Below are positions 37,257-52,221 of a DNA stretch of 62,979 nt, piece after piece. Numbering within the stretch: the stretch's first letter is position 1; every line of letters starts with the position of its first letter. Below the pieces are notes generated by a model. The model did no database searches. It was not told the DNA's origin and saw only the letters and a program-made list of their open reading frames with translations. Origin of the DNA: a virus. The stretch lies in IMG/VR virus record IMGVR_UViG_3300023216_001509; one strand, written 5' to 3'. Both the position numbers and the translations under genes were made by a program.

Positions 37257-37287
37257 GGTCTTGGTCTCCTTGGTTGGTGGTGGTGTT
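37257..37287 (-). promoter_or_regulatory. Conserved CA-rich leader/SD cassette
   Basis: Minus strand reads ACACCACCACCAACCAAGGAGACCAAGACC-ATG. Confidence 0.7.
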
Positions 37288-37960: not shown

Positions 37961-38014
37961 GGTCTTGGTCTCCTCGTGATAGTGGTGTTGGTTACTTTAT
38001 ACTCGGAACTCGTG

Positions 38015-38066: not shown

Positions 38067-38888
38067 TTAACTCAAGTTAACGCTGCTGTGCCAAGTGTCC
38101 AACTTTTCGCCGGACAGGTTATGATCCGTCGGGTCTCGTTCCATATCCTTTTCGAATGCCTTGCAAACCTGCGAGGCAATCCGCGACCACTTCTGGGAGG
38201 CACGAAATTCCTCCATCAACCTCACCCGAGACATGGCGTCGCTGCTGCCGAAGTTGATGTCGGAGGTGACGTGGGCAATGGCATCGTTCCGAACATCGAT
38301 GAAATAACCGAGCACCTCGTCCTTGGTCATGCGGTCATCTCCCTTTGCCTCCAGCCAGGTTTTGATCCGACTGCGCAGTTGGTGTCCGTAGGACGCGAGT
38401 GCGCCGTGGTAGAACACTTCCGAACCATGCCGACGAATTTCCTCGCCCATGTGGATAGCCGACGAGGCAGCAATCAGCTTGCCGATTTTGTCGCACTCAA
38501 TTTCGGAGGAACGAATGATGGTGGCAAGGCCACGCTCAAGTGCGAGCAAGGCGTGGGGCAGGGGCATGCGGTCGTCCCGCGAGTAATCCCAGTCACGCTT
38601 CAGGATACCCTGCCGGTATTTGGTATCGGAGAGTTCCTGCCTCGCCTGTACATCCTCCTCGTGGCGGATGTAAGGCAACAGCGCGTCCATGAGCCCATCC
38701 TTGTTGAGCTTGTGGACTGCGGACTTGGTCAGGAAGCATTTGCCTGCGTCCTCGTCCGCGGAATGGATGACGCCACCGTATTCCCAATTCTCCATCGCGG
38801 CGAAGAGGGCGTGCTTGAGGTCGACTTTGCTGTACTCGACCAGTGCGGTTGAAACTTGGTTGATGATGTTTTTGACGGTCATGGTCAT
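38067..38888 (-). CDS. Hypothetical 273-aa early protein
   Basis: ATG at 38888 lies behind the conserved leader. Confidence 0.5.
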   Translation of the reverse strand: MTMTVKNIINQVSTALVEYSKVDLKHALFAAMENWEYGGVIHSADEDAGKCFLTKSAVHKLNKDGLMDALLPYIRHEEDVQARQELSDTKYRQGILKRDWDYSRDDRMPLPHALLALERGLATIIRSSEIECDKIGKLIAASSAIHMGEEIRRHGSEVFYHGALASYGHQLRSRIKTWLEAKGDDRMTKDEVLGYFIDVRNDAIAHVTSDINFGSSDAMSRVRLMEEFRASQKWSRIASQVCKAFEKDMERDPTDHNLSGEKLDTWHSSVNLS

Positions 38889-38919
38889 GGTCTTGGTCTC
38901 CTTGGTTGGGGTTGGTGTT
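38889..38919 (-). promoter_or_regulatory. Conserved CA-rich leader/SD cassette
   Basis: Minus strand reads AACACCAACCCCAACCAAGGAGACCAAGACC-ATG. It directly abuts the hammerhead motif. Confidence 0.7.
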
Positions 38920-38970
38920 GGTCTCATCAGTGCGCGCCATAAGCGGCAGACCCCCGAGGGGGTTTCGACC
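38920..38970 (-). ncRNA. Type II hammerhead ribozyme motif (copy A)
   Basis: Minus strand reads GGUC-GAAA-CCCC(CUCG)GGGG-UC / UGCCGC(UUAUG)GCGcGCA-CUGAUGA-GACC. All invariant core positions are present. Confidence 0.8.
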
Positions 38971-38972
38971 TT

Positions 38973-39518
38973 CTACAGAACCCGGCCGAAGTCACACTCG
39001 TCAAACTTTTCGACGGCAGCTTTGACGATCGCATACTGTGCATTCATTGCAACCATCAGCCCAATGGCCCGGCCGCAGTTGAAGTTGTTTGCGCCGGCGG
39101 CGGCAAGGCTGGTTGCCTTGGCGGCGGTGTCCATCGCATCCATGAGGGCAAGCATCCCGTCGCTAGCTTTGTAATAACTATCCCGCAGGGCGTTGAAGTC
39201 ATCATTGTCCAAGTCACCCACTGCTGCGTTCAGGGTGTCGTCCTCGATGACCTTTTTCTTGGGGGCGGGTTGGACTTTGGTATCGTTCACCCACATCCCG
39301 AAGTCCTCGATGAGGTAATCAATCGCGCCGGTGCCTTCCTGCGCTTCCAGATAAGTGACGAGGCCGGCTGCCTTGTTGTGGTCATAGAGTTCAGCAAAAT
39401 ACTGATCGACCTGCTGGTGAATATGGTGACACGCGGCTTCGCTGCAGTTGATACCGATCAGCCAGTCGCACAGGTCAATTTTGAAGTTGTTAAGTTCGTT
39501 GTTTTTGGTCATGGTCAT
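38973..39518 (-). CDS. Hypothetical 181-aa early protein
   Basis: ATG at 39518 lies behind the conserved leader. Confidence 0.5.
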   Translation of the reverse strand: MTMTKNNELNNFKIDLCDWLIGINCSEAACHHIHQQVDQYFAELYDHNKAAGLVTYLEAQEGTGAIDYLIEDFGMWVNDTKVQPAPKKKVIEDDTLNAAVGDLDNDDFNALRDSYYKASDGMLALMDAMDTAAKATSLAAAGANNFNCGRAIGLMVAMNAQYAIVKAAVEKFDECDFGRVL

Positions 39519-39543
39519 GGTCTTGGTCTCCTTGGTTGGTGGG
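39519..39543 (-). promoter_or_regulatory. Conserved CA-rich leader/SD cassette
   Basis: Minus strand reads CCCACCAACCAAGGAGACCAAGACC-ATG. It fills the whole gap from the upstream stop. Confidence 0.7.
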
Positions 39544-39750
39544 TTACATCCAATTGACTTCGCCGTAGGCGAGTTCAACATAAAGGCGAAAGTCTTCAAG
39601 TGTCGTATCAAAGTCTTGGAGGTCTTCGGTGTCTGACTCGTTGAAGTATTCCTCGACGGTTTCAATCATTGTGGTCTGGTCGTCTTGGCCACAAATGTTT
39701 TCCAGCAGGGTTTCGATGATTTCAGTTTTGATTTCGTTTTGCTTGGTCAT
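39544..39750 (-). CDS. 68-aa strongly acidic early protein (first gene after promoter PL1)
   Basis: MTKQNEIKTEIIETLLENICGQDDQTTMIETVEEYFNESDTEDLQDFDTTLEDFRLYVELAYGEVNWM. Many Asp/Glu and very few basic residues. Confidence 0.55.
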   Translation of the reverse strand: MTKQNEIKTEIIETLLENICGQDDQTTMIETVEEYFNESDTEDLQDFDTTLEDFRLYVELAYGEVNWM

Positions 39751-39783
39751 TGTTTTGTCTCCTGTTTTGTTTCTTGTCTATGT

Positions 39784-39812
39784 AATATAACGGCTGTCTA
39801 AGACCCTGTCCA
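39784..39812 (-). promoter_or_regulatory. Sigma70-like promoter PL1 (TGGACA-17 nt-TATATT)
   Basis: Minus strand: -35 at 39812-39807 and -10 at 39789-39784. Near-identical copies at 47763-47791 and 61561-61589. Confidence 0.7.
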
Positions 39813-39952
39813 CTCCTATTTCCCTGATATTTTCAGGATTTCTGCCCGGGCAATTTAACGGTGATCTAAGGGGGTTTCCGGGTTCCCCGCATAATCTAGG
39901 GGCCAGGGCATGGAAGTCCCTTAGATGGGCAGCAGGGGCCACCGTGAGCAAC

Positions 39953-41347
39953 CTAGAACGTAGACCGAATGGCTGGGTTCCCCACCTCTAAACAGCCCGC
40001 GACGTGGACGCATTGGGTTTCGCTGAAAGGCGATTCCCGTAACACAATCCAATTCAACCGCATGAGCCCGCATTCCTTTTCGTCCGAGTTGGCGTTCAGC
40101 CCAACCATGCCGGTGACGTGGGCGAACTTGCGTTTGTCCTCGCTGAAGTTTGACCGCCCAATGGTGTTGGCATTGTACGAGGCGGCGTCGGCTTGGGTGG
40201 CGGTCACGACCAGGGAATGAGTAGACTGGGACAGCGCCCGAAGTTGTTTCCAAGTGGTGTTGATTTGATCACGGGTGTCCGCAATCCCATGAGGTGGAGC
40301 CAGGATATCCGCGTAGTCAATTACGATCACGTCAGGTATCCAACCACCACGTTCCCAGTTCTGGAGGATGGCACGAATGCCGCTGACCGTCAGCGTCGAG
40401 TTCGGGTGGCAGCTGAGGCGAAGCATCGCCTCCTTGGATTTGATTTTGGTTTTGATGATTCGCTGGCAGGCCTTGTAAGCGGTCTGCCATCCCATCTCGG
40501 TCGCCTCCTTCCTGTCCTCCACCACCAGCGCTGCCATTGGCGCACCAGATTCGCGTTCAATCTTTGTTGGGTATTTGTACTCCGACGGTTTCAACGGACG
40601 GCGGGCAGCGCGCACCATCAGGCGCCGCATGATTTGGTTCTGGCTCATGTCCCCCACTTCAAAGAAGGCAACTTTCCTGCGCTGGGTCATTGCCCTCCAA
40701 GCCACGTCCAACAGCCACCACGTCTTGCCTCGTTTTTCTGCCCCCATGAATGAGATGAATGCGTCACGTTGTAAGGCGGCGCCAAAGAACCTTCCCAAGG
40801 CACCAGGATATTTGATAAGGGGTTCCAGTTGTTCCTCGAACGCCTCACGGATGGCCCCCTCGTCGGACAGGGGATCAATCCCCGCGCCCACTCCCATCTC
40901 AACTTGACCATAGGTACTGACCCGCTTCAGGGCGCTGTCCAAGTTGCCGGCAGTAACGTCCCCGCTGATCGAGTCGGCAAGGCGTTTGAGTTTTACTTGG
41001 TTGAAATACTTGGACGCTAAATCAATCACGTAGTTGCTATTCGATTCTTTGCTGAGGTGTTCATGTTCCTCGGACAGGCCACCTAGGAACCGCTCCACAA
41101 TCTTGACGGTGTCTTCGTCGCGGTTGGTGCTGGCCCATGCCTCAAACAGCCCTTCGATTTCTTTCCCGGGGGCGTCCTCGTACTCGTTGAAGAAGTCAAC
41201 GCACCACCCGCCAATGAGGTTGCCCCATTGGGAACGGAACAAGTCGCCTTCCCACTTGGTTGCTATGCGGGCGAGAACCTGCTTGTCCACAATCATGCCG
41301 GTGAGGATTCGGCGTTCGTTTGACCCGTCACGCTTTGCTACCTTCAT
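39953..41347 (-). CDS. dnaB: DnaB-family replicative helicase
   Basis: Walker A GAEKRGKT, Walker B VIVIDYADIL, LVVTATQA. Confidence 0.8.
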   Translation of the reverse strand: MKVAKRDGSNERRILTGMIVDKQVLARIATKWEGDLFRSQWGNLIGGWCVDFFNEYEDAPGKEIEGLFEAWASTNRDEDTVKIVERFLGGLSEEHEHLSKESNSNYVIDLASKYFNQVKLKRLADSISGDVTAGNLDSALKRVSTYGQVEMGVGAGIDPLSDEGAIREAFEEQLEPLIKYPGALGRFFGAALQRDAFISFMGAEKRGKTWWLLDVAWRAMTQRRKVAFFEVGDMSQNQIMRRLMVRAARRPLKPSEYKYPTKIERESGAPMAALVVEDRKEATEMGWQTAYKACQRIIKTKIKSKEAMLRLSCHPNSTLTVSGIRAILQNWERGGWIPDVIVIDYADILAPPHGIADTRDQINTTWKQLRALSQSTHSLVVTATQADAASYNANTIGRSNFSEDKRKFAHVTGMVGLNANSDEKECGLMRLNWIVLRESPFSETQCVHVAGCLEVGNPAIRSTF

Positions 41348-42476
41348 AGTCCATCCCTGTCAGGAGTTTATTTGCTTCCATTGCATCCTGCCCATAATTA
41401 ACGATCAGGCCCGCGATGTACTTTTCAAATTCTGAAGAATCAACATCGAAGCTCAACGGCGCCAAGTTGCCACTCCACGCTTCCCAGTTGTTCACCCGCT
41501 TCCAGATGTTGCTGAACCACGTCTCTACGAAGTGGCTGGGCGCCGGCAACACGTCCACCAGGTGCCGCAGCAGGTTCCGATGCCGTGTCAGCCGCATCCT
41601 TTCTTGTGGTTCGCTGGCCGTGTTGGGATCGATCAGTTCTGCCTGCTGTATAACTTGATCACGGAACCACCCGTATCCATCCAATGAGACTTGGACAAAC
41701 GCTGGCAGTTGTTGCCCTGCCCCCTTCGGCCAATGCGCCATCAACAACCTCTCCACAACCTTTTCTGCTTCAGGGGTGACGGTGATCTGGGGGTTGTCCC
41801 GTTGCCCACGTTTCATTGCCGCAACCACCCTGTCAAACTTGTCACGGAAGATTTTGGCCGTGTAGCATTTCGGTGTCCATTGGTCACGGTAGTTTTCGCA
41901 GTACCAATCCAAGGCAGCTTCAATCATTTCCTTGGGGATGTTGTCTGCCGTTCGTAATAGTCGGAAGTGATTGGGCCAGGTTTTGGGCAGACGTTGTTTC
42001 TGTTTGTTGGGTGGCAAGGTTGTTTGAAGTTGAAGCGCTGCCGCTTTGTCGAATGGTGCGTGGTGAGTTGTTTCTTCTTCCTCTGGCTCAAATCCAAACC
42101 CGCCAGCGGGATGTGCTTTGTTCTTAACCTTCCCCAAGGGGGAAGGGGGAGGTGGATTGTCCTCCAACTCAGCCGAGGACAACCTGTCCAACTCTACCCG
42201 ACTCCAGACGGTTTCCAAGTACCGCCGGCGCCCGTCGAACTTGACTTGTTTGATGAGGTCTTTGTGTTTCAGTTTACTGATCAATCGGGCGATGTAATCC
42301 GGTCGAACCCCAAGGATTTCTCCGAGGTATTTGTTGGACGCATAGCAGCCCTTTTCTGGTGTGACCAGGGAATCGATCGTCGCCAGCAAGTGAAGTTCCG
42401 TGGCTCCAATTTCCTTGTTCAGGAACATGAACCAGACTGTCGCTGGTATCCAAATCCCTCTGAATTTCGGGTTCAT
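41328..42476 (-). CDS. Replication initiator/organiser candidate with N-terminal winged HTH
   Basis: ASNKYLGEILGVRPDYIARLISKLKHKDLI. Located between the primase and helicase genes. Confidence 0.45.
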   Translation of the reverse strand: MNPKFRGIWIPATVWFMFLNKEIGATELHLLATIDSLVTPEKGCYASNKYLGEILGVRPDYIARLISKLKHKDLIKQVKFDGRRRYLETVWSRVELDRLSSAELEDNPPPPSPLGKVKNKAHPAGGFGFEPEEEETTHHAPFDKAAALQLQTTLPPNKQKQRLPKTWPNHFRLLRTADNIPKEMIEAALDWYCENYRDQWTPKCYTAKIFRDKFDRVVAAMKRGQRDNPQITVTPEAEKVVERLLMAHWPKGAGQQLPAFVQVSLDGYGWFRDQVIQQAELIDPNTASEPQERMRLTRHRNLLRHLVDVLPAPSHFVETWFSNIWKRVNNWEAWSGNLAPLSFDVDSSEFEKYIAGLIVNYGQDAMEANKLLTGMDYEGSKA

Positions 42477-43339
42477 TCCAGGAACCTCCTCAGCTCTTGG
42501 ATTTCCATTTCACTGGCCTCGGCCGCGTCCTTCGCCACGAGTGTCACGTTGTAGGTTTCACCCGGGAACGGTTCTATTAGATCACAGAGTTGCTCTGCTC
42601 TTTTCTGGGCTTGGGTTTCGTTGTCAAAACATATCACTCGCACAGGGTACTTGCTAATCTTTAAGACTTGAGCCTTGGAGAACCCTGTCCCGCATGTTGC
42701 CACCGCTCCCGGGCCAGTCCGCCAAGTATCGAACGGCCCCTCGTGTACGATCACCGCATGCCGACAGAAGTCTTCTCCATAAAGTAATTTCTTGTGATTG
42801 ATTTCCTCGTGGTCTGCTGGCGCTGATAAGTACCGAACGCCCCTGTCCGAAATGGAACGGGTTGTCCACGAAACAACTCGCCCACGGTAATGAATTGGAA
42901 TGAACAACCTCCACGGGAGGCGTGCATGTAATCCGATTCCCCGGACACCCCATAATCGTGACAGGGATTTGAAATCCAGACCACGCCATTTCAAGTAGTT
43001 GATGTGCGCTGGCAGCAACTTGCCGACTCCCGTCGGTAACACTAGGGAACCACGTCTCTCGATGGTGGTTTGGATGGTGGTGCTGTTGAGCCCTTGTGTT
43101 AGCTCACGGATGGCGGCGTGGGTCTTGCCGGTCATTTCAACCAACGTGTCCACGACGCGGTGGGAACCACATTGCCAGCAGTTGACATAGTGAAGGTTCA
43201 GGTTCCACCCAAGATGGAAGCGGTTCGTGTCCCGCCCACAGAACGGACAATCAGTTTGGAGCCAGCCCGGGCGGCAGTGGTGGTGTCCCTCTTTTAAGAA
43301 CTTAACTCCCAGGGACAGGAGCAAGTTATCTAGATTCAA
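42473..43339 (-). CDS. DNA primase (zinc finger plus TOPRIM)
   Basis: CPFCGRD...CWQCGSH, then VIVHEGPFD and VICFDNE. Confidence 0.75.
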   Translation of the reverse strand: MNLDNLLLSLGVKFLKEGHHHCRPGWLQTDCPFCGRDTNRFHLGWNLNLHYVNCWQCGSHRVVDTLVEMTGKTHAAIRELTQGLNSTTIQTTIERRGSLVLPTGVGKLLPAHINYLKWRGLDFKSLSRLWGVRGIGLHARLPWRLFIPIHYRGRVVSWTTRSISDRGVRYLSAPADHEEINHKKLLYGEDFCRHAVIVHEGPFDTWRTGPGAVATCGTGFSKAQVLKISKYPVRVICFDNETQAQKRAEQLCDLIEPFPGETYNVTLVAKDAAEASEMEIQELRRFLE

Positions 43340-43553
43340 GTTGGTTGTCCTTTTTGATGGCTTCCCGCATCAGTTCCACAACCTTGTCCGTCATGGTGAT
43401 ACCACGTCTGGCGCAGTAGGCTTTGAACTGGTCTTTCACTCCCCTTGGGATGTTTCGTAGGAATACGGTGGCGGGTGGCTTAACTGGTTTCACGTGTAAG
43501 TTCCTCCTGAAGTTGATCGAAGATATTGAGCTGCTCATCAATGGTGCCTCCAT
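43326..43553 (-). CDS. Ribbon-helix-helix DNA-binding protein candidate
   Basis: VFLRNIPRGVKDQFKAYCARRGITMTDKVVELMREAI. The true start is probably internal (GTG near 43494). Confidence 0.4.
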   Translation of the reverse strand: MEAPLMSSSISSINFRRNLHVKPVKPPATVFLRNIPRGVKDQFKAYCARRGITMTDKVVELMREAIKKDNQLESR

Positions 43554-44832
43554 CTAGGGTTGCGGATAGAACGGCCTGTTTCTCTTGGATGATTCGGGAC
43601 AACCTTTCCTCAATGGTGTTCACGCCGATCAAGTAATAGCACGTCGACTTGTACTGCTGCCCAATCCGGTGGATGCGGTCTTCGCCCTGAATATGCTCTC
43701 CGGGTGTCCACCCAAGTTCCGCGAACAGGACGGTGGAGGCAGCGGTGAGGGTCAGTCCTATGCCTGCCGCTTGGAGGTTCCCAATGAACAGGCGTGTTCC
43801 CTTGTGGCGTTGGAATTTGTCGACGGAGCGTTGCCGCTTTTTCCCCGTCACCTGCCCAGTCACAGTCACGCAACCCGGATAGCGTTCCTTCAGTTGCTGA
43901 ATGATGTTTTTGTGGATGGCGAACACCACAAGCTTGTCATCTGTTTCTTCCAGAAACGTGTCTATCCAATCCATCACCGCTTTGAGTTTTAGTTCGGCCG
44001 CGAGGCGTTTCAAGTATCCCATTTTGACTAGCCGCTGGGCGCGGGCAGCAGAGGTCGCCTTCTGTTTGGAATACTTGGACAGCCACAAGATCAAGTCCTC
44101 CTCGGCCTCGTCGTATTCCTTTCGGTTTTCCAAGGGGACAGGAACCGCGTGCCTTGCCTTCGCCGGCAGGTCTTTCAACACGTCCACCTTCCGCCGGCGC
44201 ACCATACAATTCGTGATGAGGATTTCATGGAGTTCGGGTAGGTTCCGAGCGCCCTTGTATTCCCAGCCCCACGGTTTCCGCTGGGCGGCACAATACTCAA
44301 GGGCGTAACTCATGAACGACTTGAACAAGTCCGGGCGGATGATGTTTAGAGTTGTCCATAACTCGGCGGGGCGGTTGGTAAGAGGTGTCCCAGACAACGC
44401 CAACACGTGAGGCACTGACTTGCACAGTTGCTTCACGTAGCGTGTCCGCTTGGCCTGCCTGTTTTTGATGTACTGGCACTCGTCCAAGATTACCAACTTG
44501 GGTTCCAAGTCCACCAGGTATTCCAACCAAGGGCCGAGGATTTCGTAATTGATAATCACGAAGGGGTTTTGCTTGAAGACCTTTTTCTTCGGCGGCTTGG
44601 TTCCCTCCAGGATTTCGGCTCGCTCCTTGATGTGGACTGCCGCTTCCCTTGCCCAGTTGTACTTGAGCGAGGCAGGGCAGATGACCACAACGGGCGACAT
44701 CTTATTGCGTTTGAAATAGTAGAGGGCTTGGATGGTCTTGCCCAGTCCCATTTCATCTGCCAGCAGGACACGGCCACCGAGCTTCTCCAGTTGTAGCACG
44801 CCTCTCTTCTGGTAGCGATAAAGTTTGGTCAT
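43480..44832 (-). CDS. SNF2-family helicase/translocase
   Basis: ADEMGLGKT, LILDECQYIKN, LSGTPLTNRPAELW, HRIGQ. The ATG at 44832 follows GGAGGTGG and forms an ATGA overlap. Confidence 0.85.
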   Translation of the reverse strand: MTKLYRYQKRGVLQLEKLGGRVLLADEMGLGKTIQALYYFKRNKMSPVVVICPASLKYNWAREAAVHIKERAEILEGTKPPKKKVFKQNPFVIINYEILGPWLEYLVDLEPKLVILDECQYIKNRQAKRTRYVKQLCKSVPHVLALSGTPLTNRPAELWTTLNIIRPDLFKSFMSYALEYCAAQRKPWGWEYKGARNLPELHEILITNCMVRRRKVDVLKDLPAKARHAVPVPLENRKEYDEAEEDLILWLSKYSKQKATSAARAQRLVKMGYLKRLAAELKLKAVMDWIDTFLEETDDKLVVFAIHKNIIQQLKERYPGCVTVTGQVTGKKRQRSVDKFQRHKGTRLFIGNLQAAGIGLTLTAASTVLFAELGWTPGEHIQGEDRIHRIGQQYKSTCYYLIGVNTIEERLSRIIQEKQAVLSATLDGGTIDEQLNIFDQLQEELTRETS

Positions 44833-45362
44833 GCCACCTCCTTCAGGATGGTAATTATTTCGGCGAAACACGCCTTGGTTTCTTCCGGTGTCCACTTATA
44901 CTCGGTCGCCAGGATTTCCTTCAGGGCTGCTTTCCCATCACGGCAACTGTCCGGAACATCTCTCCGGGTGGCGACGAGCTTGACGATCAGCCGGGCGCCT
45001 TTACTTAGTTCCCGAACAGCGCAGAAGTCCTCGAGGTCGAACTCAACTTGGATGGGGGCGGTTGCCGCCTCCAAGACACCCACGTCCTCCCGTGGTAGCA
45101 GGACGAGGTGCTGCTGTCGCACGCGCACTTCATCCTTCAGCTTCCACCAGATAAGTTGCCTCACCCAAGTGGTGAACTTCATGCCCTTGCCTTCGGTGTA
45201 TCGATCGTAAGCGGCGATGAAGATTTCTTGGGCGTAAGAGAACAAATCCTGGTAGTCCCCGCCATACTGTTTCTGAAAGTCGTGGCAGGTTTTGTGAATG
45301 AGCAGTTGCACGTCAGCGTATGTTTCCGCAAGTGCATCGCGGCGCATGGTCTTTGCCTTCAT
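44829..45362 (-). CDS. Sigma-70 family (ECF-like) sigma factor
   Basis: Region 2-like DLFSYAQEIFIAAYDRYTEGKGMKFTTWVRQLIWWKLKDEVR. Region 4-like LSKGARLIVKLV...LKEILATEYKWTPEETKACFAEI. Confidence 0.6.
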   Translation of the reverse strand: MKAKTMRRDALAETYADVQLLIHKTCHDFQKQYGGDYQDLFSYAQEIFIAAYDRYTEGKGMKFTTWVRQLIWWKLKDEVRVRQQHLVLLPREDVGVLEAATAPIQVEFDLEDFCAVRELSKGARLIVKLVATRRDVPDSCRDGKAALKEILATEYKWTPEETKACFAEIITILKEVA

Positions 45363-45412
45363 GGCTTTGGTCTCCATTTGAAGTGGCGCTTCGTGAATTG
45401 GTATTTTACCAC

Positions 45413-45430
45413 GTCCAACAAATGTTGGAC
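45413..45430. promoter_or_regulatory. Operator-like palindrome upstream of the sigma gene
   Basis: gtccaac-aaat-gttggac, between the terminator and the sigma factor RBS. Confidence 0.4.
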
Positions 45431-45435
45431 AGCAG

Positions 45436-45474
45436 TATAAAAAGGAACCCTCCCGAGGGATGTCCCCGGGAGGG
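45436..45474 (-). terminator. Rho-independent terminator after the DUF932 gene
   Basis: On the minus strand, a CCCUCCCG...CGGGAGGG stem is followed by UUCCUUUUUAUA. Confidence 0.65.
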
Positions 45475-45487
45475 CGCCGGCCAGGTT

Positions 45488-46222
45488 TTAGTTAGCGGAG
45501 AAACAGTCCCTCGCGTTTGGGAGCAATGCCCTGAACCGATTCATCTGGTTCATCTGCTCGATGGGCGGGTTGCGCTTCACGGTGTGCGTGAACGCATTGA
45601 GCAGCGCCCAACTTGTGTCACGTCCGTGCTCGGCGAAGGTGGGGTTGCGGTACTCTTTGTCCACAGCACCAATTCGCGACCAAGGCATGAGTCGGTTTCG
45701 GCCCGCTTCCATCAAAATCTCGTCAGCCTGAGCTGGACGAAGTTTGTTGTTGCGGAGGTCTTCCACCACCTCGTTGATGCCGCGTGCCTTGGCGACATAC
45801 TGGTCAAGGGCTGCTTCAATTTCCCCGAACAGCTGAAAGCCATGAGTATGCTTCCGCTGCATGACGATCTCGCCTGTTGCCATCCCGTTGTTACAGACGA
45901 CGACGTTGGTTCCCACAACCAGCAGCAACGAGCGCCGCATCATGTTGGAGGTGAGGAACCCAAGGGACAACTCCTGCCCCTCCGGCGCGTCCAGTCCCTT
46001 GATGTCCAAAGTGAACGCCCCGGCGAGGTCTGCCTTGTCCTTGGACACAGCAAAGCGCTGGCCCTTGATAACCCAACCACGGGTTCCGATTTCATCAACC
46101 AGTGCCGATGCTAATGCACCATGCGGTATCCCTTGCCAGTACGCGCCGGCCTTGGCTGGGCGCTGCAGGGGGATGCGGTTCAGGTCGGCGAGGGACGTGT
46201 TGGCTCCGTAAACAGTAATCAT
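45488..46222 (-). CDS. DUF932-family protein
   Basis: LLLVVGTNVVVCNNGM...TSWALLNAFTHTVK pattern typical of DUF932 proteins of phages, plasmids and ICEs. Confidence 0.55.
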   Translation of the reverse strand: MITVYGANTSLADLNRIPLQRPAKAGAYWQGIPHGALASALVDEIGTRGWVIKGQRFAVSKDKADLAGAFTLDIKGLDAPEGQELSLGFLTSNMMRRSLLLVVGTNVVVCNNGMATGEIVMQRKHTHGFQLFGEIEAALDQYVAKARGINEVVEDLRNNKLRPAQADEILMEAGRNRLMPWSRIGAVDKEYRNPTFAEHGRDTSWALLNAFTHTVKRNPPIEQMNQMNRFRALLPNARDCFSAN

Positions 46223-46265
46223 CAGATTCTCCTTGAAGTGAAATGGTCAAAGTTTGTTGGTCTAC

Positions 46266-46279
46266 AATATACTCGGAAC
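46266..46279 (-). promoter_or_regulatory. CCGAGTATA-box promoter-like element (copy 3)
   Basis: Minus strand reads GTTCCGAGTATATT, 44 nt upstream of the ATG at 46222. Confidence 0.4.
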
Positions 46280-46291
46280 AAAGATTTGAAA

Positions 46292-46846
46292 TTATTCGGA
46301 GGCCCGTTCCAATGCCCTCCCCTCTGCCTCGGTCAGGGGCGCGACCTTGCCCATCTTCATCGTGTCCCAATCGTGGTCGCTTACCATGCGCGCCCCAGCC
46401 TTGAGCTGAAGCTTGATTGTGACGTCACTGATTTTGTAATTTTCGGAAACGGTACAGATGGCAATGGTGGCGTCTTCAACTCGGTCGGCCCACCCGTTTG
46501 CTCCCATCCAACGAAGGACGGCGCAGACACTATATCCGAACGCCTTGGCTCGGACAGGTTTGGTTCCGCTGCCCTTCTTCTTGCCCATTCGGGCAACGAT
46601 GTCTGCCGGCAGGGACAGGGTCTCCACATCGTACGAAAGTTGATTTCCATCAACTAGGTGAACCCCACGCTTGGCCATGGCGACCGTCAGGTCGGCACGC
46701 CACTGCTTCCAGATGCGCTGGGCATCGTGGACGTGTTTCTCGCTCAGGTTCATTCGCTCGGCTACCGACTCAATTGTGACGCATTCTTGGTCGGCCAGGA
46801 TTGCCAACTCGTTTGATTCCTTGGAAAATTCTGGGTTCGCTTTCAT
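46292..46846 (-). CDS. Hypothetical early protein with MKANPEF N-terminus and one LRWMG-type domain
   Basis: ATG at 46846 lies behind the conserved leader. Contains FGYSVCAVLRWMGANGW...VTIKLQLKAG. Confidence 0.5.
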   Translation of the reverse strand: MKANPEFSKESNELAILADQECVTIESVAERMNLSEKHVHDAQRIWKQWRADLTVAMAKRGVHLVDGNQLSYDVETLSLPADIVARMGKKKGSGTKPVRAKAFGYSVCAVLRWMGANGWADRVEDATIAICTVSENYKISDVTIKLQLKAGARMVSDHDWDTMKMGKVAPLTEAEGRALERASE

Positions 46847-46880
46847 GGTCTGGTCTCCTTGGTTGAGGTTGGTGTTGGTG
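46847..46880 (-). promoter_or_regulatory. Conserved CA-rich leader/SD cassette
   Basis: Minus strand reads CACCAACACCAACCUCAACCAAGGAGACCAGACC-ATG. Confidence 0.7.
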
Positions 46881-46931
46881 TGCATCAATCTCCCCTCGCC
46901 CGCTTGTGGGCGAGGGGGTGGTGGCGAACAC
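46880..46931 (-). other. Conserved post-stop hairpin element (copy Y)
   Basis: Minus strand reads GUGUUCGCCACCAC-CCCCUCGCCC-ACAAGC-GGGCGAGGGG-AGAUUGAUGCACAC. Confidence 0.6.
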
Positions 46932-47327
46932 CTATGCGCCGTTGATCAGTGCCAGCTTGGCAGCAATCGAATCGGCACCGAACTTGAAAGCCTTGCCGGA
47001 GCGGACTTCCGTGGCAGAGATGGGGTACTTGCGTCGACGCGACTTCAGTCCCGTGATGACGAACAGGTTCCCACGGCTGTTGAACTCCTTGCCAAGGTCT
47101 GACGGCTGCAGTCCGTAGCTGGCTGCATGCCGCTTGAAGTCCTCGGCCTCTTGGGAAAAGACTTCCCCGTCCTCGGACACTTCGCTACCCACGACTTTGA
47201 AGGTGGCGGTGTTGTCCGTGTAACTGACACTCCCCATTTCAAACTTCATTCCAGTGGCCTCTTCGATGGTTCGCAGGGCCGCTTCAATTCGCAACTTGAC
47301 GCTCGTGATGTAAACTCTGTCGATCAT
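46932..47327 (-). CDS. Hypothetical 131-aa early protein
   Basis: RBS GGGAGACC. Confidence 0.5.
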   Translation of the reverse strand: MIDRVYITSVKLRIEAALRTIEEATGMKFEMGSVSYTDNTATFKVVGSEVSEDGEVFSQEAEDFKRHAASYGLQPSDLGKEFNSRGNLFVITGLKSRRRKYPISATEVRSGKAFKFGADSIAAKLALINGA

Positions 47328-47359
47328 TGTGGTCTCCCGAAAAGTGGTTAAGTGCTGAT

Positions 47360-47409
47360 GGTCTCATCAGGCCCGGAACAACCGGACGACCCCCGAAGGG
47401 GTTTCGACC
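47360..47409 (-). ncRNA. Type II hammerhead ribozyme motif (copy B)
   Basis: Minus strand reads GGUC-GAAA-CCCC(UUCG)GGGG-UC / GUCCGG(UUGUU)CCGGGC-CUGAUGA-GACC. It begins at the last base of the upstream stop codon. Confidence 0.8.
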
Positions 47410-47720
47410 TACTCCTCGGTTTCCAGCAGCATGAACTCGTAGAGGATTGCTTCAAGTCTTGCCAGCCCTTCGATGGTCTTGTCGGCAAGGTAATCCTCGG
47501 AGTGCAGGACGAGGTAATAGCTGTCCACGTTTTCCTCGATCGTCCAGCCCTCACCGTAGACAAGCACGGCCACTGCCTCGCTGTCGAACACGCCGAGGCC
47601 ATCCCACGGCCCGTCAGCGTTGCGGATTACAGTTGCCCTGAAAGCATTGAAGTTAACCAGGTGATTTAGGATGTTGAATTTGAAAGGGCGGAAAATCTCA
47701 TCATGTTTGGTTGTGGTCAT
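47409..47720 (-). CDS. Hypothetical 103-aa early protein (first gene after promoter PL2)
   Basis: ATG at 47720 lies behind a leader variant (CAACCAAGGAAACCAAGACG-ATG). Confidence 0.5.
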   Translation of the reverse strand: MTTTKHDEIFRPFKFNILNHLVNFNAFRATVIRNADGPWDGLGVFDSEAVAVLVYGEGWTIEENVDSYYLVLHSEDYLADKTIEGLARLEAILYEFMLLETEE

Positions 47721-47762
47721 CGTCTTGGTTTCCTTGGTTGAAGTTGGTGTCCTTGTCCATGT

Positions 47763-47791
47763 AATATATCGGCTGTCTAAAACCACGTCTA
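47763..47791 (-). promoter_or_regulatory. Sigma70-like promoter PL2 (TAGACG-17 nt-TATATT)
   Basis: Shares the TAGACAGCCGATATATTACATGGACAAG core with PL1 and PL3. Confidence 0.6.
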
Positions 47792-47854
47792 TCCCTTTTC
47801 CCTTGATTTTCTTGGGTTTTCGTTTGCCCCCTTATTTTCGTATCCGAATTGAAA

Positions 47855-47883
47855 TTGGTTGGGAAGTGGGGTGGTGTTATAAT
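47855..47883 (+). promoter_or_regulatory. Rightward promoter TTGGTT-17 nt-(TGt)TATAAT
   Basis: Perfect extended -10 (tgttataat) 40 nt upstream of the ATG at 47923. Divergent from PL2. Confidence 0.6.
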
Positions 47884-47922
47884 GGGAGGACAAACCATTC
47901 CCCCAACACAAGGAGCCACCCA

Positions 47923-48471
47923 ATGGCCAAAGAGTTGAAGGCCGAATTGATCTTGGATGTAAAGTGGACGCACACTGACCAGCCAGACAGCGCCATTGAT
48001 CCAGTCAGCGCCCCCAAGATTATTGATTCAAATAAAGCTAGCCTGCGGAGTACGTTGGAGGACGGGACGGACGCGCCGGCGGAGAACGAGGATACCTGCC
48101 GGTTGTCCTACCACGATATCCGAAGGTTGCCAGCAAGTGCTACTGAGGAATTTGATTTATATGGCGGGCTGGTGGACGTGTTCGGCGCGACGATTAACTT
48201 CACCACCGTTCGGTCGTTCTGCATTATTAACCGCAATGAATCATCGAAGGTGAACAACATCTTGGAAATCGGTGGGGCCACGAACGCATGGGCAACGTGG
48301 GCCGGGCATTCATCGGACACAATCAAAATCGGCCCAGGTGGGGCTGTCACGATGTGGAACCCGTCGGCGGCTGGGTTTGTGGTTACTAACTCAACAGGCG
48401 ACAAATTGAAAGTCGTCAACACCGGCGGCGACGACACCCTAGAATATCAAATTACCATCATTGGAGATTAA
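47923..48471 (+). CDS. Hypothetical 182-aa protein
   Basis: ATG at 47923 follows AAGGAG. Beta-rich sequence, no family recognised. Confidence 0.5.
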   Translation: MAKELKAELILDVKWTHTDQPDSAIDPVSAPKIIDSNKASLRSTLEDGTDAPAENEDTCRLSYHDIRRLPASATEEFDLYGGLVDVFGATINFTTVRSFCIINRNESSKVNNILEIGGATNAWATWAGHSSDTIKIGPGGAVTMWNPSAAGFVVTNSTGDKLKVVNTGGDDTLEYQITIIGD

Positions 48472-48501
48472 AGGGATACGGGAACCAGGGAAGGAACAAC
48501 A

Positions 48502-48771
48502 ATGAAAATTCTCAAGATGCTTTCGGTGGCGCTCCTCGTCGCGGCGGTGGTCGTGCTGGGTGTTAGCCAGTTCCGGATAATGAAGGAACTGGACAAGTAC
48601 AAGCGCGGTCTGCTTCATAGCTATCAGCAGTCGTCTGAGACGCAAATGATGATGCAGATGTTTTTCGATATGGCTCCAGCCGAGATGGAACGTATTTCTC
48701 GGCAGGTGATTCGTGAGGAGCTTGGGCGCCCGTCGGAACCGGACGACCACAACATCACGCTCAGTGATTAA
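48502..48771 (+). CDS. Signal-anchored small membrane protein (lysis-cassette candidate)
   Basis: N-terminal MKILKMLSVALLVAAVVVLGV. Confidence 0.45.
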   Translation: MKILKMLSVALLVAAVVVLGVSQFRIMKELDKYKRGLLHSYQQSSETQMMMQMFFDMAPAEMERISRQVIREELGRPSEPDDHNITLSD

Positions 48772-48834
48772 GCTCTAAGCCAGGTTCCCAATTTGTGATA
48801 GAGATATCGAATCACAAATGGAAGGAGGAGAGAA

Positions 48835-49476
48835 ATGGTAACAAGAAGAACATTCATCAACTTGAGTGCGGCTGCTCTGGTGGGGATGGGGTTGGTGCCG
48901 GCGAGTGATGTCGATGGTGGCCTGTTCAAGTGGCGCCCGTGTCCATATTGTGATGTCGAAACTGTTCCTGCTTTGGCTGCTCGGCAGCGGGCGTATTGGG
49001 CTCGGCGGCATTTGAGGTATCACATGGCTGGGCGGGATTTGTACGACATGACCCGGGAGGTCTGGGACAAGGAATTTCGATTGGCATTTGACGCTTGGTC
49101 GGAGGTAACACCACTGACGTTTGAGCAAGTGGGTGTGACTGGTGAATTTGATATCATCATTGCCGTGGGCAACAACCGCCGGCAAGGGTTCGGTCGGGTT
49201 GGTAGGACACTGGCTTGGGCGCAGTTACCCCCATCCAAGAATTATGATGGGGTGCTGCTAACGAAATTTGATTTGGCAGAAAATTGGATACTCCCAGGGA
49301 CGGATGAGTTTGGTGTTGTCCTTCGGTCGGTGGCGTGTCACGAGATTGGCCACTTGCTGGGGTTGAACCATTCACGCGACCCAGAGGCGTTGATGTTTCC
49401 GTATATCAACAACGCACTGGCGCCCAGGGCAGACGACATCCAGAGGATTCAGCAACTTTATGGGGGGCCGATATAG
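48835..49476 (+). CDS. Matrixin-type (M10) zinc metalloprotease with twin-arginine signal peptide
   Basis: MVTRRTFINLSAAALVGMG (Tat motif). VACHEIGHLLGLNHSRDPEALMFPY (HExxHxxGxxH plus Met-turn). DDIQRIQQLYG. Confidence 0.85.
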   Translation: MVTRRTFINLSAAALVGMGLVPASDVDGGLFKWRPCPYCDVETVPALAARQRAYWARRHLRYHMAGRDLYDMTREVWDKEFRLAFDAWSEVTPLTFEQVGVTGEFDIIIAVGNNRRQGFGRVGRTLAWAQLPPSKNYDGVLLTKFDLAENWILPGTDEFGVVLRSVACHEIGHLLGLNHSRDPEALMFPYINNALAPRADDIQRIQQLYGGPI

Positions 49477-49482
49477 GTGGAC

Positions 49483-49914
49483 ATGAAATGGGTGGGTGGG
49501 AAGCTGCTTGGTCTTGTCCTTTCGGTGTTTGTTGATGTGGATACGCTCCAGCCGGTAATCGAAGACAGGTGTGACGTAATTGAAGTCAACCAGGTATTTG
49601 ATCCGACTTGGACTGTCCGCCGTTTCACGCAAGTGATTCTGTATGACTACCGGAACAAGTTTGACCAGGTAAGCGGGGAACGTGAGTGGGATCATTTCAT
49701 TGGAAACTGGCGCATGCTGGAAATGGGGAACGTCCGGTTCTCCCATGTGAAACGGGAGTGGATATTGATTTTCTATGATGACGCGGACGACGTGTTTCGA
49801 ACGGTGAGGGCAACTTCCTACCGTTTCACCAAGGCCAATTTCGACTGCGAAGTGGAGGCACGGAAAAGGTTGCCGGTCAACCAACGAACGCCAATCCTTT
49901 CCCCCATCCCATAG
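49483..49914 (+). CDS. Hypothetical protein
   Basis: Co-directional ORF right after the protease stop. Preferred over the antisense ORF 49372..49884. Confidence 0.35.
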   Translation: MKWVGGKLLGLVLSVFVDVDTLQPVIEDRCDVIEVNQVFDPTWTVRRFTQVILYDYRNKFDQVSGEREWDHFIGNWRMLEMGNVRFSHVKREWILIFYDDADDVFRTVRATSYRFTKANFDCEVEARKRLPVNQRTPILSPIP

Positions 49915-49950
49915 CCAGGTCCATCCAACGTGGAGTGAAAGCGCTCGCTG

Positions 49951-49959
49951 TGTTATATT
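49951..49959 (+). promoter_or_regulatory. Extended -10 element TGtTATATT upstream of terS
   Basis: gctgtgttatatttgtttca. Resembles the 91-110 element. Confidence 0.4.
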
Positions 49960-49994
49960 TGTTTCATGTACGCAATAGCGGGAGGGAGCAAACC

Positions 49995-50783
49995 ATGCCC
50001 AAGAGTGTCTGGAAAGATGAGTTCTACGTCACCTCCTACGAGTTGGCACGAGGGGGAATGTCCGAGCAGAAAATTGCTACCTCGCTGGGGGTGAGCTCTG
50101 CTACTCTAAGGAAATGGAAGACCAACAAACCCGCATTGCGTGATGCTATCGCAAGAGGTCGGGCAGTCGGTGGTGGAGCGAGCGCCACAGCCACGTTCCA
50201 TGAATACATTTTCCAGAAGCTGCCGCCAAACCTTGCCCAGTTGTACAAAGAAATCGAGGCGGTGGAGGCAGAGGAAAACGGGATTGCCCGCATCGAGGCT
50301 ATGCTAGTCAAACAAGGTAAGCGGGCCAGGCAACATCTGTTCCTTCATGCCTTGGTCACATCCAATTTCAACGTCAGCCGTGCCTGTTCCATGGTAAACA
50401 TTTCCCGCAAGACGTTTGAGAGTTGGGTTACGTCCGAACCTGACTTTCAGGAGTTAATGGACGAAATGGATTACCACAAAAAGAACTATTTCGAGTCAGC
50501 CTTGGTTGGGTTGGTAGCAAGGGGAGATAGCAGCGCAACAATTTTCGTGAATAAGACGGTGAACCGTGATCGTGGATACAACGATAAGCTTGACGTGAAT
50601 ATCCAAGGTCACATCGAGCACAACCATGCCCATGCCTTGATCCCAATCAGTGACCTAGAGCTGCCCTTAGAAACACGAACGGCAATCCTCCAGGCTATGA
50701 GGACAAGGAAGTTAGCGTTGGAAAATAACAACGGGAGAAAAGACCTTGAACAGACAGTCGGGGAACGAGCCAGGATTTCGTGA
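49995..50783 (+). CDS. terS: Terminase small subunit candidate (HTH)
   Basis: GGGAGGGAG RBS. GMSEQKIATSLGVSSATLRKWK HTH. Immediately upstream of and overlapping TerL. Confidence 0.55.
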   Translation: MPKSVWKDEFYVTSYELARGGMSEQKIATSLGVSSATLRKWKTNKPALRDAIARGRAVGGGASATATFHEYIFQKLPPNLAQLYKEIEAVEAEENGIARIEAMLVKQGKRARQHLFLHALVTSNFNVSRACSMVNISRKTFESWVTSEPDFQELMDEMDYHKKNYFESALVGLVARGDSSATIFVNKTVNRDRGYNDKLDVNIQGHIEHNHAHALIPISDLELPLETRTAILQAMRTRKLALENNNGRKDLEQTVGERARIS

Positions 50784-52221
50784 GGTAGATTTGGTTCGCA
50801 GTATTTGTGAGGAGTCGTTTTACGAGTTCCTCAAGGAATTCTGGGATGTGATAATCCCTGAAACCCCTGTCTGGAATTGGCACATCGAATATATGTGCAA
50901 CCAACTCCAATCCATGGCGGAACGGGTGTTCGATAACCAGCCCAAACGCTACGACCTGATCGTAAACATTTCACCAGGGAGTACGAAGAGCACCATTGCC
51001 TCGGTTGCCTTCCCTGCTTGGACGTGGACACGTATGCCCACCGCCCGCCACATCTGTGGCAGCCATGCCTTCGACCTTGGGATGGACTTGTCCCGTAGGT
51101 GCCGAGACATACTGCAAGAGACATCCCGCCACGATGGGAAACCGTCCTACCGCGACTGCTGGCCCCACATCCAGCTCAGGGAAGACCAGAACACGAAAGG
51201 CTACTTCGCCAATACGCTCGGCGGGATGCGCAAGAGTGTAACGGTGGGGGGCAAGTCACCAGTCGGGTTTCATGGCCACTTCCTAATTATCGACGACCCC
51301 ATTGATCCGCAGAAGGTACTGTCCGATGCCGAGATCAAGAACGCCAACGAATGGATGAACGAAACCCTGCCCAGCCGTAAAGTCCAGAAAGACATTACCC
51401 CCATGATCCTGATCATGCAGCGCCTCCACCAGAACGACCCCACGGGGAACCGTATGTCCAAGGGGGTGGCAGGGGGCAAGATAAAGCACGTCTGCCTGCC
51501 GGCAGATATGCACGAGGGATACGAGGTGAAGCCAAGGTTCCTCCGCCGCCGATACCAGGATGGCCTGATGGATGCGACACGCATGCCCAGGGAAGTCTTA
51601 ACCGAGGCCCGCGCCCAGCTCGGGGAGTTCGGTTATTCAGGCCAGTATGGTCAACACCCTGTCCCCCTTGGAGGGGCCATGTTTAAGACCGAGCGGATAG
51701 ACATAGACGAAGCACCAGACACTTCACGACTGCGCAAGCGGATACGGTATTGGGACAAGGCAGGGACAGCAGGGGGTGGTGCTTATACGGTGGGTGCGTT
51801 GTTGGGGGTGGACATTGCTGACCGTTATTGGGTGCTCGATATTGTGCGAGGCCAGTGGGACAGCAGCGAGCGTGAAAGGGTGATAGAACAGACAGCGGAA
51901 ATGGATGGTAAGAAGGTGCTCATTGGACTGGAGCAGGAACCAGGGAGTGGTGGCAAGGAATCGGCCGAGTCAACAGTCCGCCGGCTGGCTGGCTACCGCC
52001 TACGAATAGACCGTCCCACTGGAGCCAAGGAATGGCGAGCTGACCCCTTTAGCAGCCAGGTAAACGGACACAATGTATCAGTGAAGAAGGCTGATTGGAA
52101 TGCCCCCTTCCTTGAGGAACTTCGCTTCTTCCCTGCCTCGACTTACAAGGATCAAGTGGACGCGGCCAGTGGGGCGTTCAACATGATCGCCACTATACGG
52201 AAGAAGGTGGGCGCCCTATGA
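50746..52221 (+). CDS. terL: Terminase large subunit
   Basis: ATPase motifs NISPGSTKST and HFLIIDDPID. Nuclease-domain pattern YWDKAGT...GLEQEPGSGGKE...YKDQVDAASGAF. The TTG start is uncertain. Confidence 0.9.
   Translation: MNRQSGNEPGFREVDLVRSICEESFYEFLKEFWDVIIPETPVWNWHIEYMCNQLQSMAERVFDNQPKRYDLIVNISPGSTKSTIASVAFPAWTWTRMPTARHICGSHAFDLGMDLSRRCRDILQETSRHDGKPSYRDCWPHIQLREDQNTKGYFANTLGGMRKSVTVGGKSPVGFHGHFLIIDDPIDPQKVLSDAEIKNANEWMNETLPSRKVQKDITPMILIMQRLHQNDPTGNRMSKGVAGGKIKHVCLPADMHEGYEVKPRFLRRRYQDGLMDATRMPREVLTEARAQLGEFGYSGQYGQHPVPLGGAMFKTERIDIDEAPDTSRLRKRIRYWDKAGTAGGGAYTVGALLGVDIADRYWVLDIVRGQWDSSERERVIEQTAEMDGKKVLIGLEQEPGSGGKESAESTVRRLAGYRLRIDRPTGAKEWRADPFSSQVNGHNVSVKKADWNAPFLEELRFFPASTYKDQVDAASGAFNMIATIRKKVGAL

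Follow-up and report, generated by a model that had tools for sequence, protein, structure and literature searches.

Does a 50-nucleotide (nt) element lodged between two early genes of a virus constitute a genuine self-cleaving ribozyme, and what part is played by a small hairpin that can mask its catalytic core? The question is raised by positions 47409..47360, on the minus strand, of a stretch of viral DNA of 62,979 nt (IMG/VR record IMGVR_UViG_3300023216_001509; "the window" below means this full stretch), where an original prediction had placed a type II hammerhead, here copy B, alongside a second one, copy A, located further downstream on the same strand. The answer that we favor, with a probability of roughly 0.8, is that copy B is a functional cis-acting type II hammerhead of a compact subtype, which would operate in the early minus-strand transcripts of the phage. 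Read directly, the minus-strand RNA from 47409 to 47360 is GGUC GAAA CCCC UUCG GGGG U C GUCCGG UUGUU CCGGGC CUGAUGA GACC. Its parts, as given by the sequence, and the bond predicted to be cut are:

47409-47406, minus strand: GGUC, 3' strand of stem II
47405-47403, minus strand: G12-A14
47402-47389, minus strand: stem-loop III (A15.1...U16.1, with a UUCG loop), in which A15.1 at 47402 pairs with U16.1 at 47389
47388, minus strand: C17
47387-47371, minus strand: stem-loop I (GUCCGG UUGUU CCGGGC)
47370-47364, minus strand: CUGAUGA (C3-A9)
47363-47360, minus strand: GACC, 5' strand of stem II
47388/47387, minus strand: predicted scissile bond between C17 and G1.1, from hammerhead numbering applied to the sequence

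With its 50 nt, copy B makes up a complete type II hammerhead. It has a GUC cleavage triplet and every core nucleotide: C3 U4 G5 A6 N7 G8 A9, G12 A13 A14, the A15.1-U16.1 pair and H17, the same set of positions as in the criteria of Perreault et al. (PMC3088659). Stems I and III are capped by loops and stem II is open, giving the type II order 5'-II-GAAA-III-H-I-CUGANGA-II-3'. Stem II comprises 4 base pairs (bp; GGUC/GACC), with G10.1-C11.1 adjoining the core; stem III comprises 5 bp, namely A15.1-U16.1 and CCCC/GGGG, under the UUCG cap; and stem I comprises 6 bp, including one U.G, with the 5-nt loop UUGUU. Standard pairs adjoin the core throughout: G10.1-C11.1, G1.1-C2.1 and A15.1-U16.1. The first G of the motif is also the last base of the TAG stop codon (47411..47409) of an open reading frame (ORF) at 47720..47409. 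The original prediction had given the same sequence and structure, and the reading above agrees with it base for base; likewise, its cleavage site was reached again by direct counting (C17 = 47388, G1.1 = 47387), and the sequence bears out the overlap of the motif with the UAG stop.

We searched the 63-kilobase window with a descriptor of the general layout: GAAA, a stem III hairpin with an A-U closing pair, any nucleotide but G at the cleavage site, a hairpin for stem I, CUGANGA, and 3 bp or more in stem II. Copies A and B are its only matches, both on the minus strand. Across 300 dinucleotide shuffles the mean was 0.013 matches per window and none had two or more; hence, the two copies are not a product of chance and copy B, judged by its sequence, is a genuine type II hammerhead between two early genes. 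Its companion is described by two entries:

38970..38920, minus strand: hammerhead copy A, 51 nt, from the sequence, the descriptor and the family model R1 (see below)
38949/38948, minus strand: predicted cleavage site of copy A, from hammerhead numbering

Stem II, the core and the helix of stem III are identical in the two copies, whereas copy A has CUCG as loop III and a stem I (UGCCGC/GCGcGCA, with the loop UUAUG and one bulged C) that is unrelated in sequence to that of copy B. With all filters off, the R1 model finds no third, divergent copy in the window, the next match scoring 11 bits. The region around copy A recurs at 99.86% identity in two IMG/VR fragments from other samples; in one such variant phage from another metagenome (L031, 3862-3912) copy A differs only by an A-to-G change in loop I (UUAUG to UUGUG), which stays inside the U-N-R-N-K loop consensus of the family.

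Both ORFs flanking copy B lack relatives in IMG/VR and match no Pfam or PHROG family, which makes a comparison at the same locus impossible, and we therefore compared the motif across its family. Scanning IMG/VR by exact pattern for the 5' half, GGTCGAAACCCCNNNNGGGGTC, recovered 46 loci, among which 20 unique sequences (19 loci and copy B itself) share the full 50-nt type II layout, nearly all with a different stem I; most of the other loci are hammerheads of other topologies. Two scans that fixed only the core-adjacent bases (TCGAAAC...GTC...CTGA[T or V]GAGA) yielded at least 120 loci each. Descriptor matches in all the fetched loci comprise 321 unique type II hammerheads, so that the family has at least 321 members; these are the basis of all counts out of 321 given below.

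The covariation analysis rests on A1, a gap-free alignment of 36 sequences with the exact 50-nt layout of copy B. As its members were chosen by a descriptor that demands pairing, their 100% pairing holds by construction, and the informative figures are the changes on both sides of a pair and a check free of this selection: 109 of 123 unique matches picked by core sequence alone, among the matches listed, form all three helices. Both-side (compensatory) changes are seen in 12 of the 15 pairs of A1, touching all three stems, and the covariation score is 0.697 as against 0.144 for column shuffles (0/500 reaching the observed score) and no more than 0.09 for slid partners. RNAalifold independently predicts exactly the hammerhead fold from A1. 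The GAAA and CUGA-GA core positions, A15.1-U16.1, C17 and G10.1-C11.1 are invariant, N7 varies once, and the stems vary freely. A covariance model, R1, built from A1 scores copy B, which belongs to its training set, at 68.6 bits (E = 3e-17) and copy A, which does not, at 62.5 bits. The original prediction had pointed to the common core and stem II of the two copies, with their differing stem I and loop III (CUCG versus UUCG), as evidence of covariation. The comparison itself is accurate, and although two copies alone are thin evidence, the claim holds in A1, where homologues keep the core while varying the stems, as that prediction had asked to be checked.

The placement of the motif is equally consistent across the family. 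Copy B sits directly behind a stop codon, with a Shine-Dalgarno (SD) sequence and a start codon next downstream, and its flanking genes lie on the same strand, within the early and replication gene block:

47409..47720, minus strand: upstream ORF of 103 amino acids (aa), no family match, its UAG stop overlapping copy B (sequence, family scans)
47338-47334, minus strand: SD sequence GGGAG of the downstream ORF (sequence)
46932..47327, minus strand: downstream ORF of 131 aa, no family match, with its ATG at 47327 (sequence, family scans)

Among the relatives, an ORF of at least 50 codons ends no more than 12 nt upstream in 138/170 (null 6.7%), 35 of them overlapping the motif by one base just as in copy B, and an SD sequence and start codon follow at a median of 21 nt in 142/170 (null 29%). 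Which genes flank the motif differs from locus to locus: two relatives (L127 and L025) have nearly the same stem I as copy B, and the flanking proteins of L127, the one locus compared in this respect, are unrelated to those of the window. The identities of the genes flanked by phage hammerheads had earlier been found not to be constant (Perreault et al., PMC3088659).

Parts of the motif also occur in other settings. The half-motif GGUCGAAACCCC...GGGGUC is present in hammerheads of other topologies, where stem II is closed by a loop (...UGAGACC-UGAAU-GGUCGAAA...; L002, L008, L037, L041, L042, L045 and others), and in a repeated element, CCUUUGGCA-GGGUCGAAACCCCGCAAGGGGUC-GCGGGAGCC, found up to three times per contig (L016, L024, L046). 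This suggests that the permuted hammerhead types of phages might share modules.

Why then do standard annotations miss copy B? Rfam scans of the whole window at the gathering threshold and at E <= 1 return no ribozyme match. In local scans the type II family RF02276 (Hammerhead_II) aligns end to end with both copies, scoring 24.1 bits with copy B and 23.9 with copy A as against a gathering score of 37. Copy B shares with RF02276 and the type II hammerheads of Perreault et al. the catalytic core, the GUC triplet, the circular permutation and the phage intergenic habitat; however, stem II has 2 bp in the Rfam consensus as opposed to 4 bp in copy B, loop I is larger in the consensus than the 5 nt of copy B, and the consensus joins loop I to the 3' tail by a Watson-Crick pseudoknot, of which copy B shows no signal. 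The absence of these three consensus features from both copies accounts for the sub-threshold scores.

These differences recur across the family and define a compact subtype. The base 5' of stem II is A in 297/321 relatives, stem II has 4 bp in 241/321, and stem-loop I is exactly 17 nt long in 225/321. In these 225 compact members loop I begins with U in 218; its third base is mostly A (173, with G in 25) and its fifth mostly G (168, with U in 40). The resulting consensus is an open stem II of 4 bp, a stem III of 5 bp capped by a tetraloop and a stem I of 6 bp whose loop reads U-N-R-N-K; copy B displays the 5' A, the 4-bp stem II, the 17-nt stem-loop I with a U-first loop and the short tetraloop stem III. 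A loop I/3'-tail pseudoknot of at least 4 bp can be formed in 35/225 compact members, which is the chance level (null 32.6 +/- 4.2), as opposed to 71/81 of the relatives with a large loop I (null 34.9). By this contrast, phage type II hammerheads are of two forms, the pseudoknot form represented by the Rfam consensus and the compact form. For copy B itself, a pseudoknot was considered and set aside: only UGUU/AGCA can be drawn, including one G.U, and such pairings are at chance level throughout the subtype. None of 12 sampled loci with compact relatives reaches the RF02276 gathering score.

As examples of the pseudoknot form we noted type II hammerheads in intergenic gaps of the Streptomyces phages Celia (L281, MN062705.1 42637-42684) and Daudau (L282, NC_054668.1), which carry no ribozyme annotation in GenBank. 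Daudau has two such sites, of which one, like the Celia site, scores above the Rfam gathering threshold and the other is found by R1 only.

Type II hammerheads have been known from phage and prophage intergenic regions since 2011, often several per genome flanking genes or short gene blocks (PMC3088659), and some near phage genes cleave in vivo in Desulfovibrio vulgaris (PMC8782182). The closest described counterpart of copy B is that of Burkholderia phage Bcep176, which we reconstructed from the primer table of Perreault et al. and which is located after gp32. It shares with copy B the A-GGUC flank, the 4-bp stem II, the 6-bp stem I and the start on the G of a TAG stop, and its loop I, UUAUG, is that of copy A. 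It differs in having an A6C core variant and a much longer stem-loop III, as against the full consensus core and minimal stem III of copy B. The Bcep176 ribozyme self-cleaves in vitro, slowly owing to A6C (kobs <0.1 per min; PMC3088659), and its locus, too, does not reach the RF02276 gathering score. Thus, the hammerhead called by the original prediction is upheld by its core, helices and covariation, but with the corrections that it is not unusual for phages, the Bcep176 design having been published in 2011, and that it falls below the Rfam gathering score.

Two positions adjoining the helices are candidates for a tertiary contact:

47410, minus strand: A 5' of stem II, the middle base of the UAG stop (A in 297/321)
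47381, minus strand: first U of loop I, of the near-invariant type (U in 218/225)

The type I/III hammerheads (sTRSV, Schistosoma) resemble copy B in the geometry of a 4-bp stem II and a stem I of about 6 bp and in a conserved U and A, and in them a reverse-Hoogsteen U.A contact joins a U of loop I to an A at the far end of stem II (PMC6155905). In copy B, unlike these, stem II has no loop and the A is a single-stranded flank, often lying within the upstream stop codon in the family. By analogy, A47410 and U47381 are candidate partners in a tertiary contact of the loop-loop type.

The second part of the question concerns the AUCAG tail (47359..47355), which lies directly 3' of copy B and permits an alternative structure:

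47370..47355, minus strand: alternative 6-bp hairpin CUGAUG(AGAC)CAUCAG, the minimum-free-energy fold of the 55-mer (copy B with AUCAG)

In this hairpin, which we term the masking hairpin, core nucleotides C3-G8 and the final C of stem II are covered, and the tail forms part of the 3' arm. The 55-mer folds into it at -24.6 kcal/mol, compared with -21.3 kcal/mol for the hammerhead fold of the 50-nt element, and when both folds are evaluated on the same 55-mer the difference is -1.6 kcal/mol in favor of the hairpin; these energies leave out the tertiary energy of the hammerhead core. Copy A, with the tail AACAC, cannot form it.

Comparative evidence indicates that the pairing is more than incidental. 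The full 6-bp hairpin can form in 26/321 relatives (~8%), which have 24 different stem-loop I sequences, against a null expectation of 0.93/321 (at most 5 in 2000 tail shuffles), an enrichment of ~28-fold; other tail offsets give 0-3. Among tails of the form xUCAG, x is G in 6/6 cases where N7 is C, while it is A in 14 and G in 2 where N7 is U (Fisher p = 3.8e-4), with the qualification that some of the C7-G carriers are clearly kin, so that fewer than 6 independent N7/tail events lie behind this figure. Pairing is kept only through G.U wobbles in 8/26 carriers. In 25/26 the computed energies favor the hairpin over the active fold, the mean difference being -2.0 kcal/mol with a narrow spread. 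The spacer to the start codon is 31 nt in carriers versus 22 nt otherwise; in the window, the downstream ATG (47327) lies 27 nt past the end of the hairpin. Taken together, these patterns lead us to regard the masking hairpin as a selected feature of a hammerhead subclass, compatible alike with a rate tuner, a switch or a lock on the cleavage product. The original prediction was right that copy B has this alternative 6-bp hairpin and that copy A lacks it; its further suggestion of a possible on/off switch gains comparative support for the hairpin as such, from the enrichment and the N7 covariation, but these do not decide between the modes of action.

Two other explanations of the sequence were considered. 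That CTGATGAGACCATCAG is a DNA palindrome serving as a protein operator is unlikely, since carriers that pair through G.U wobbles only point to pairing at the RNA level. A transcription terminator was rejected, there being no T-run after either hairpin. In Bcep176 (L283, NC_007497.1 12164-12244) the tail AGCG can pair with the variant core (UGCUG/CAGCG), so that the C6 change is compensated, though this is a single anecdote. As the constructs assayed in 2011 included the AGCG tail, the slow rate of this ribozyme might stem partly from masking and not from A6C alone.

Folds that sequester the core have been seen in engineered and viroid hammerheads, where an alternative helix likewise forms on the CUGAUGA strand and excludes the active fold. 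Those, however, are synthetic aptazymes or rearrangements of whole viroid genomes, whereas copy B has a natural 5-nt 3' extension that recurs in phage mRNAs. In the literature searched, whose coverage is incomplete, we found no description of natural core-masking hairpins in phage hammerheads; the compact subtype being already known from Bcep176 (PMC3088659), the recurrent masking hairpin is the only part of the present picture for which no description was found. We tentatively suggest that the (A/G)UCAG extension may mark a subclass of type II hammerheads, so far undescribed, that are naturally self-masking and occur in phage mRNAs. In it the complementarity of the hairpin would be kept when N7 changes, and masking would make the ribozyme conditional or its cleavage irreversible; this is a possibility worth entertaining rather than one that we would expect to hold.

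Nested within the reading of copy B as a functional ribozyme, and somewhat more doubtful than the subclass itself, is a stricter version in which the hairpin is a true regulatory switch that keeps the ribozyme off until it is opened, conceivably by a 30S subunit at the downstream ribosome-binding site (RBS), by a helicase or other protein, or by a change in temperature or Mg2+. Cleavage would then report on translation or on the stage of infection. The narrow energy range by which the hairpin prevails in 25/26 carriers looks as if the two folds were poised against each other, and the enrichment (26/321 versus 0.93), the N7/tail covariation (p = 3.8e-4), the 8/26 carriers with G.U wobbles and the longer carrier spacer can all be read in the same way. 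Yet the hairpin is present in only ~8% of the family and copy A of the very same phage does without it; the C7-G cases fall in few lineages (e.g. L007/L218 and L196/L262) and hence represent few independent events; and a 4-bp stem II and a 6-bp hairpin exchange fast, for which slower cleavage is to be expected rather than an off state.

For the functional hammerhead, a transcriptional setting is suggested by a 51-nt element present in three copies of the same orientation, of which 2/3 were picked up as sigma-70-like matches, and by a terminator-like hairpin:

47802-47752, minus strand: 51-nt element with a sigma-70-like TAGACG-17-TATATT at 47791-47763 (repeat and consensus match)
39823-39773, minus strand: 51-nt element with a sigma-70-like TGGACA-17-TATATT at 39812-39784 (repeat and consensus match)
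61600-61550, minus strand: third copy of the 51-nt element (direct repeat)
45475-45447, minus strand: hairpin resembling an intrinsic terminator, 12 bp with 9 G-C and a T-run (consensus match only)

The element at 47802-47752, which is the putative promoter of the unit carrying copy B, lies ~350 nt upstream of the latter and is followed by a shared leader and RBS, the 103-aa ORF and copy B. That at 39823-39773 is followed by a 68-aa ORF (39750-39544), a 181-aa ORF (39516-38973) and copy A. The hairpin at 45475-45447, which likely marks the end of the unit carrying copy B, sits between the gene at 46222-45488 and a sigma-factor-like gene at 45377-44829, and thereby between copies B and A. The 51-nt elements are probably early promoters of the phage, and each hammerhead would accordingly belong to a separate early transcription unit, close to the 5' end of the unit and behind the one or two small cistrons with which the unit begins. 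As an observation in its own right, each of the elements is found just upstream of a small early ORF, the unit at 61.6 kb being without a hammerhead and the other two having one each.

From the motif, its family and its placement we infer cleavage, the transcript architecture and the functional consequences as follows. Copy B would be transcribed within a polycistronic mRNA beginning at the promoter-like element, fold directly behind the stop codon of the first cistron and cut after C17 (47388). In hammerhead cleavage the upstream product comes to end in a 2',3'-cyclic phosphate, while the downstream product begins with a 5'-OH. Here, the former would be a short 5' mRNA ending in the stem III hairpin, and the latter an mRNA starting with the stem I hairpin, to which the masking hairpin would be adjoined in the case of copy B. 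Being held together by the 4-bp stem II only, the products should separate, whereupon the upstream and downstream genes would gain independent stability and translation. Before cleavage, the AUCAG tail would compete for the core, lowering the fraction in the active fold and so tuning the rate. After departure of the 5' product, the hairpin would lock the freed core beside stem I at the new 5' end, blocking re-association and re-ligation and adding structure to that end. The processing of phage transcripts into operon- or gene-length mRNAs is also the function proposed, though not proven, in the literature (PMC3088659; PMC6765202).

Several observations weigh against a functional ribozyme at this site. 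Copy B stays below the RF02276 gathering threshold and is without the pseudoknot that most described type II hammerheads use for fast cleavage; its loop I, UUGUU, has minority residues of the compact subtype in G at position 3 (11%) and U at position 5 (18%); and the inactive hairpin lies 1.6-3.3 kcal/mol below the active fold in the nearest-neighbor model, whereby cleavage could be slow or conditional. As for the transcript, the promoter and terminator consensus matches are no commoner than in shuffled sequence over the region scanned.

An alternative that we regard as improbable is that copy B is a structured intergenic repeat, such as a pair of stability hairpins, an RNase site or a recombination module, which resembles a hammerhead without cleaving. 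The cleavage of copy B is a prediction and its Rfam score is sub-threshold, and the unrelated flanks of near-identical ribozymes (L127 versus the window) depict an element that moves or persists independently of its neighbors. Against this, all the core positions are of the consensus type in both copies, and in A1 the core is invariant save for N7 with the stems free to vary. Such a fixed core amid freely varying stems implies selection on catalysis rather than on hairpins alone. Termination as the purpose of the hairpins would again demand a T-run, which is missing.

More improbable still, by about half, is that the paired hammerheads excise the 8,439-nt RNA between their cleavage sites (47387..38949) and possibly circularize or splice it. 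The ends of that RNA, stem I(B)-CUGAUGA-GACC and GGUC-GAAA-stem III(A)-UC with its cyclic phosphate, could re-form a hybrid hammerhead capable of ligation, given that A and B, direct repeats spaced by 8,439 nt, share an identical stem II and core; moreover, the replication genes (SNF2 helicase, primase, initiator and DnaB) lie between them, and the possibility has been raised for clustered phage hammerheads (Perreault et al., PMC3088659). However, GGUC/GACC is the commonest stem II of the family (71 of the first 195), which makes the identity of A and B unspecific; the terminator-like hairpin (45475-45447) and the promoter-like element (39823-39773) between the copies suggest separate transcripts; circular or spliced products were sought by Perreault et al. 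and none was found (PMC3088659); and the masking hairpin of copy B competes with re-association. A chance origin of copies A and B has, in view of the shuffles, essentially no probability.

For copy B as a functional compact hammerhead, the significance lies less in the ribozyme as such than in its subtype and its tail. One more plain phage hammerhead adds little, such elements having been known since 2011 with their role in processing polycistronic mRNA still a guess. The compact, pseudoknot-less subtype, on the other hand, is abundant in viral contigs and systematically missed by the RF02276 threshold, as a result of which annotation pipelines under-count phage ribozymes. The layout of a promoter-like element, one or two small ORFs, a hammerhead and downstream genes offers a simple system for the question of whether the first cistron is uncoupled from the rest by cleavage. 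Finally, the recurrence and covariation of the masking hairpin suggest regulation, or cleavage made irreversible, in some phage hammerheads; a self-masking subclass, if true, would be a natural counterpart of the engineered switchable hammerheads and a handle on what phage hammerheads do.

The remainder of the window provides the genomic background. Bases 1-42 are identical to 62938-62979, which indicates that the phage genome, of 62,937 bp, is either closed into a circle or terminally redundant. A megablast search of 45000-50000 against GenBank phages gave no match, and the large terminase subunit (TerL) shows no more than 38% identity to its counterpart in any GenBank phage, the figure for Croceibacter phage P2559Y; by these sequence comparisons the phage, an uncultured tailed one, is novel. 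Copy B belongs to a long minus-strand block with genes for an SNF2 helicase, a primase, a replication initiator, a DnaB-like helicase, a methyltransferase, 7-deazaguanine enzymes and a DNA polymerase, and the terminase genes are on the other strand:

49935-52221, plus strand: terminase genes

Six early genes have nearly the same translation-initiation leader, CCAACCAAGGAGACCAAGACC-ATG-ACC, the shared stretch including the first codons:

37236-37277, minus strand: leader CCAACCAAGGAGACCAAGACC-ATG-ACC (direct repeat, as are the following five)
37940-37981, minus strand: the same leader
38868-38909, minus strand: the same leader
39498-39539, minus strand: the same leader
47700-47741, minus strand: the same leader
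60975-61016, minus strand: the same leader

Further features of the genome were observed in passing. At 30059-32965, on the minus strand, genes for a QueC-like protein, a GTP cyclohydrolase and a queuine tRNA-ribosyltransferase (DpdA-like) adjoin the DNA polymerase genes, which suggests that the phage DNA may be modified with 7-deazaguanine. Dense tandem repeats with a 12-nt period, rich in CCAGG, occupy ~1.2 kb at 61740-62940, flanked by (ATCGG)n runs at 24-65 and 61687-61736 that form an inverted pair across the genome junction; this region may be an origin with iterons or a packaging region. An Rfam match to tsr1 at 62578-62724 (27 bits versus a gathering score of 235) falls inside these tandem repeats and is probably spurious. 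Lastly, 22636-22793 contains three 64-nt direct repeats along with an inverted pair of TGTCATGAC / CATGCAAAATGTCA units, an array that may serve as an operator or in regulation.

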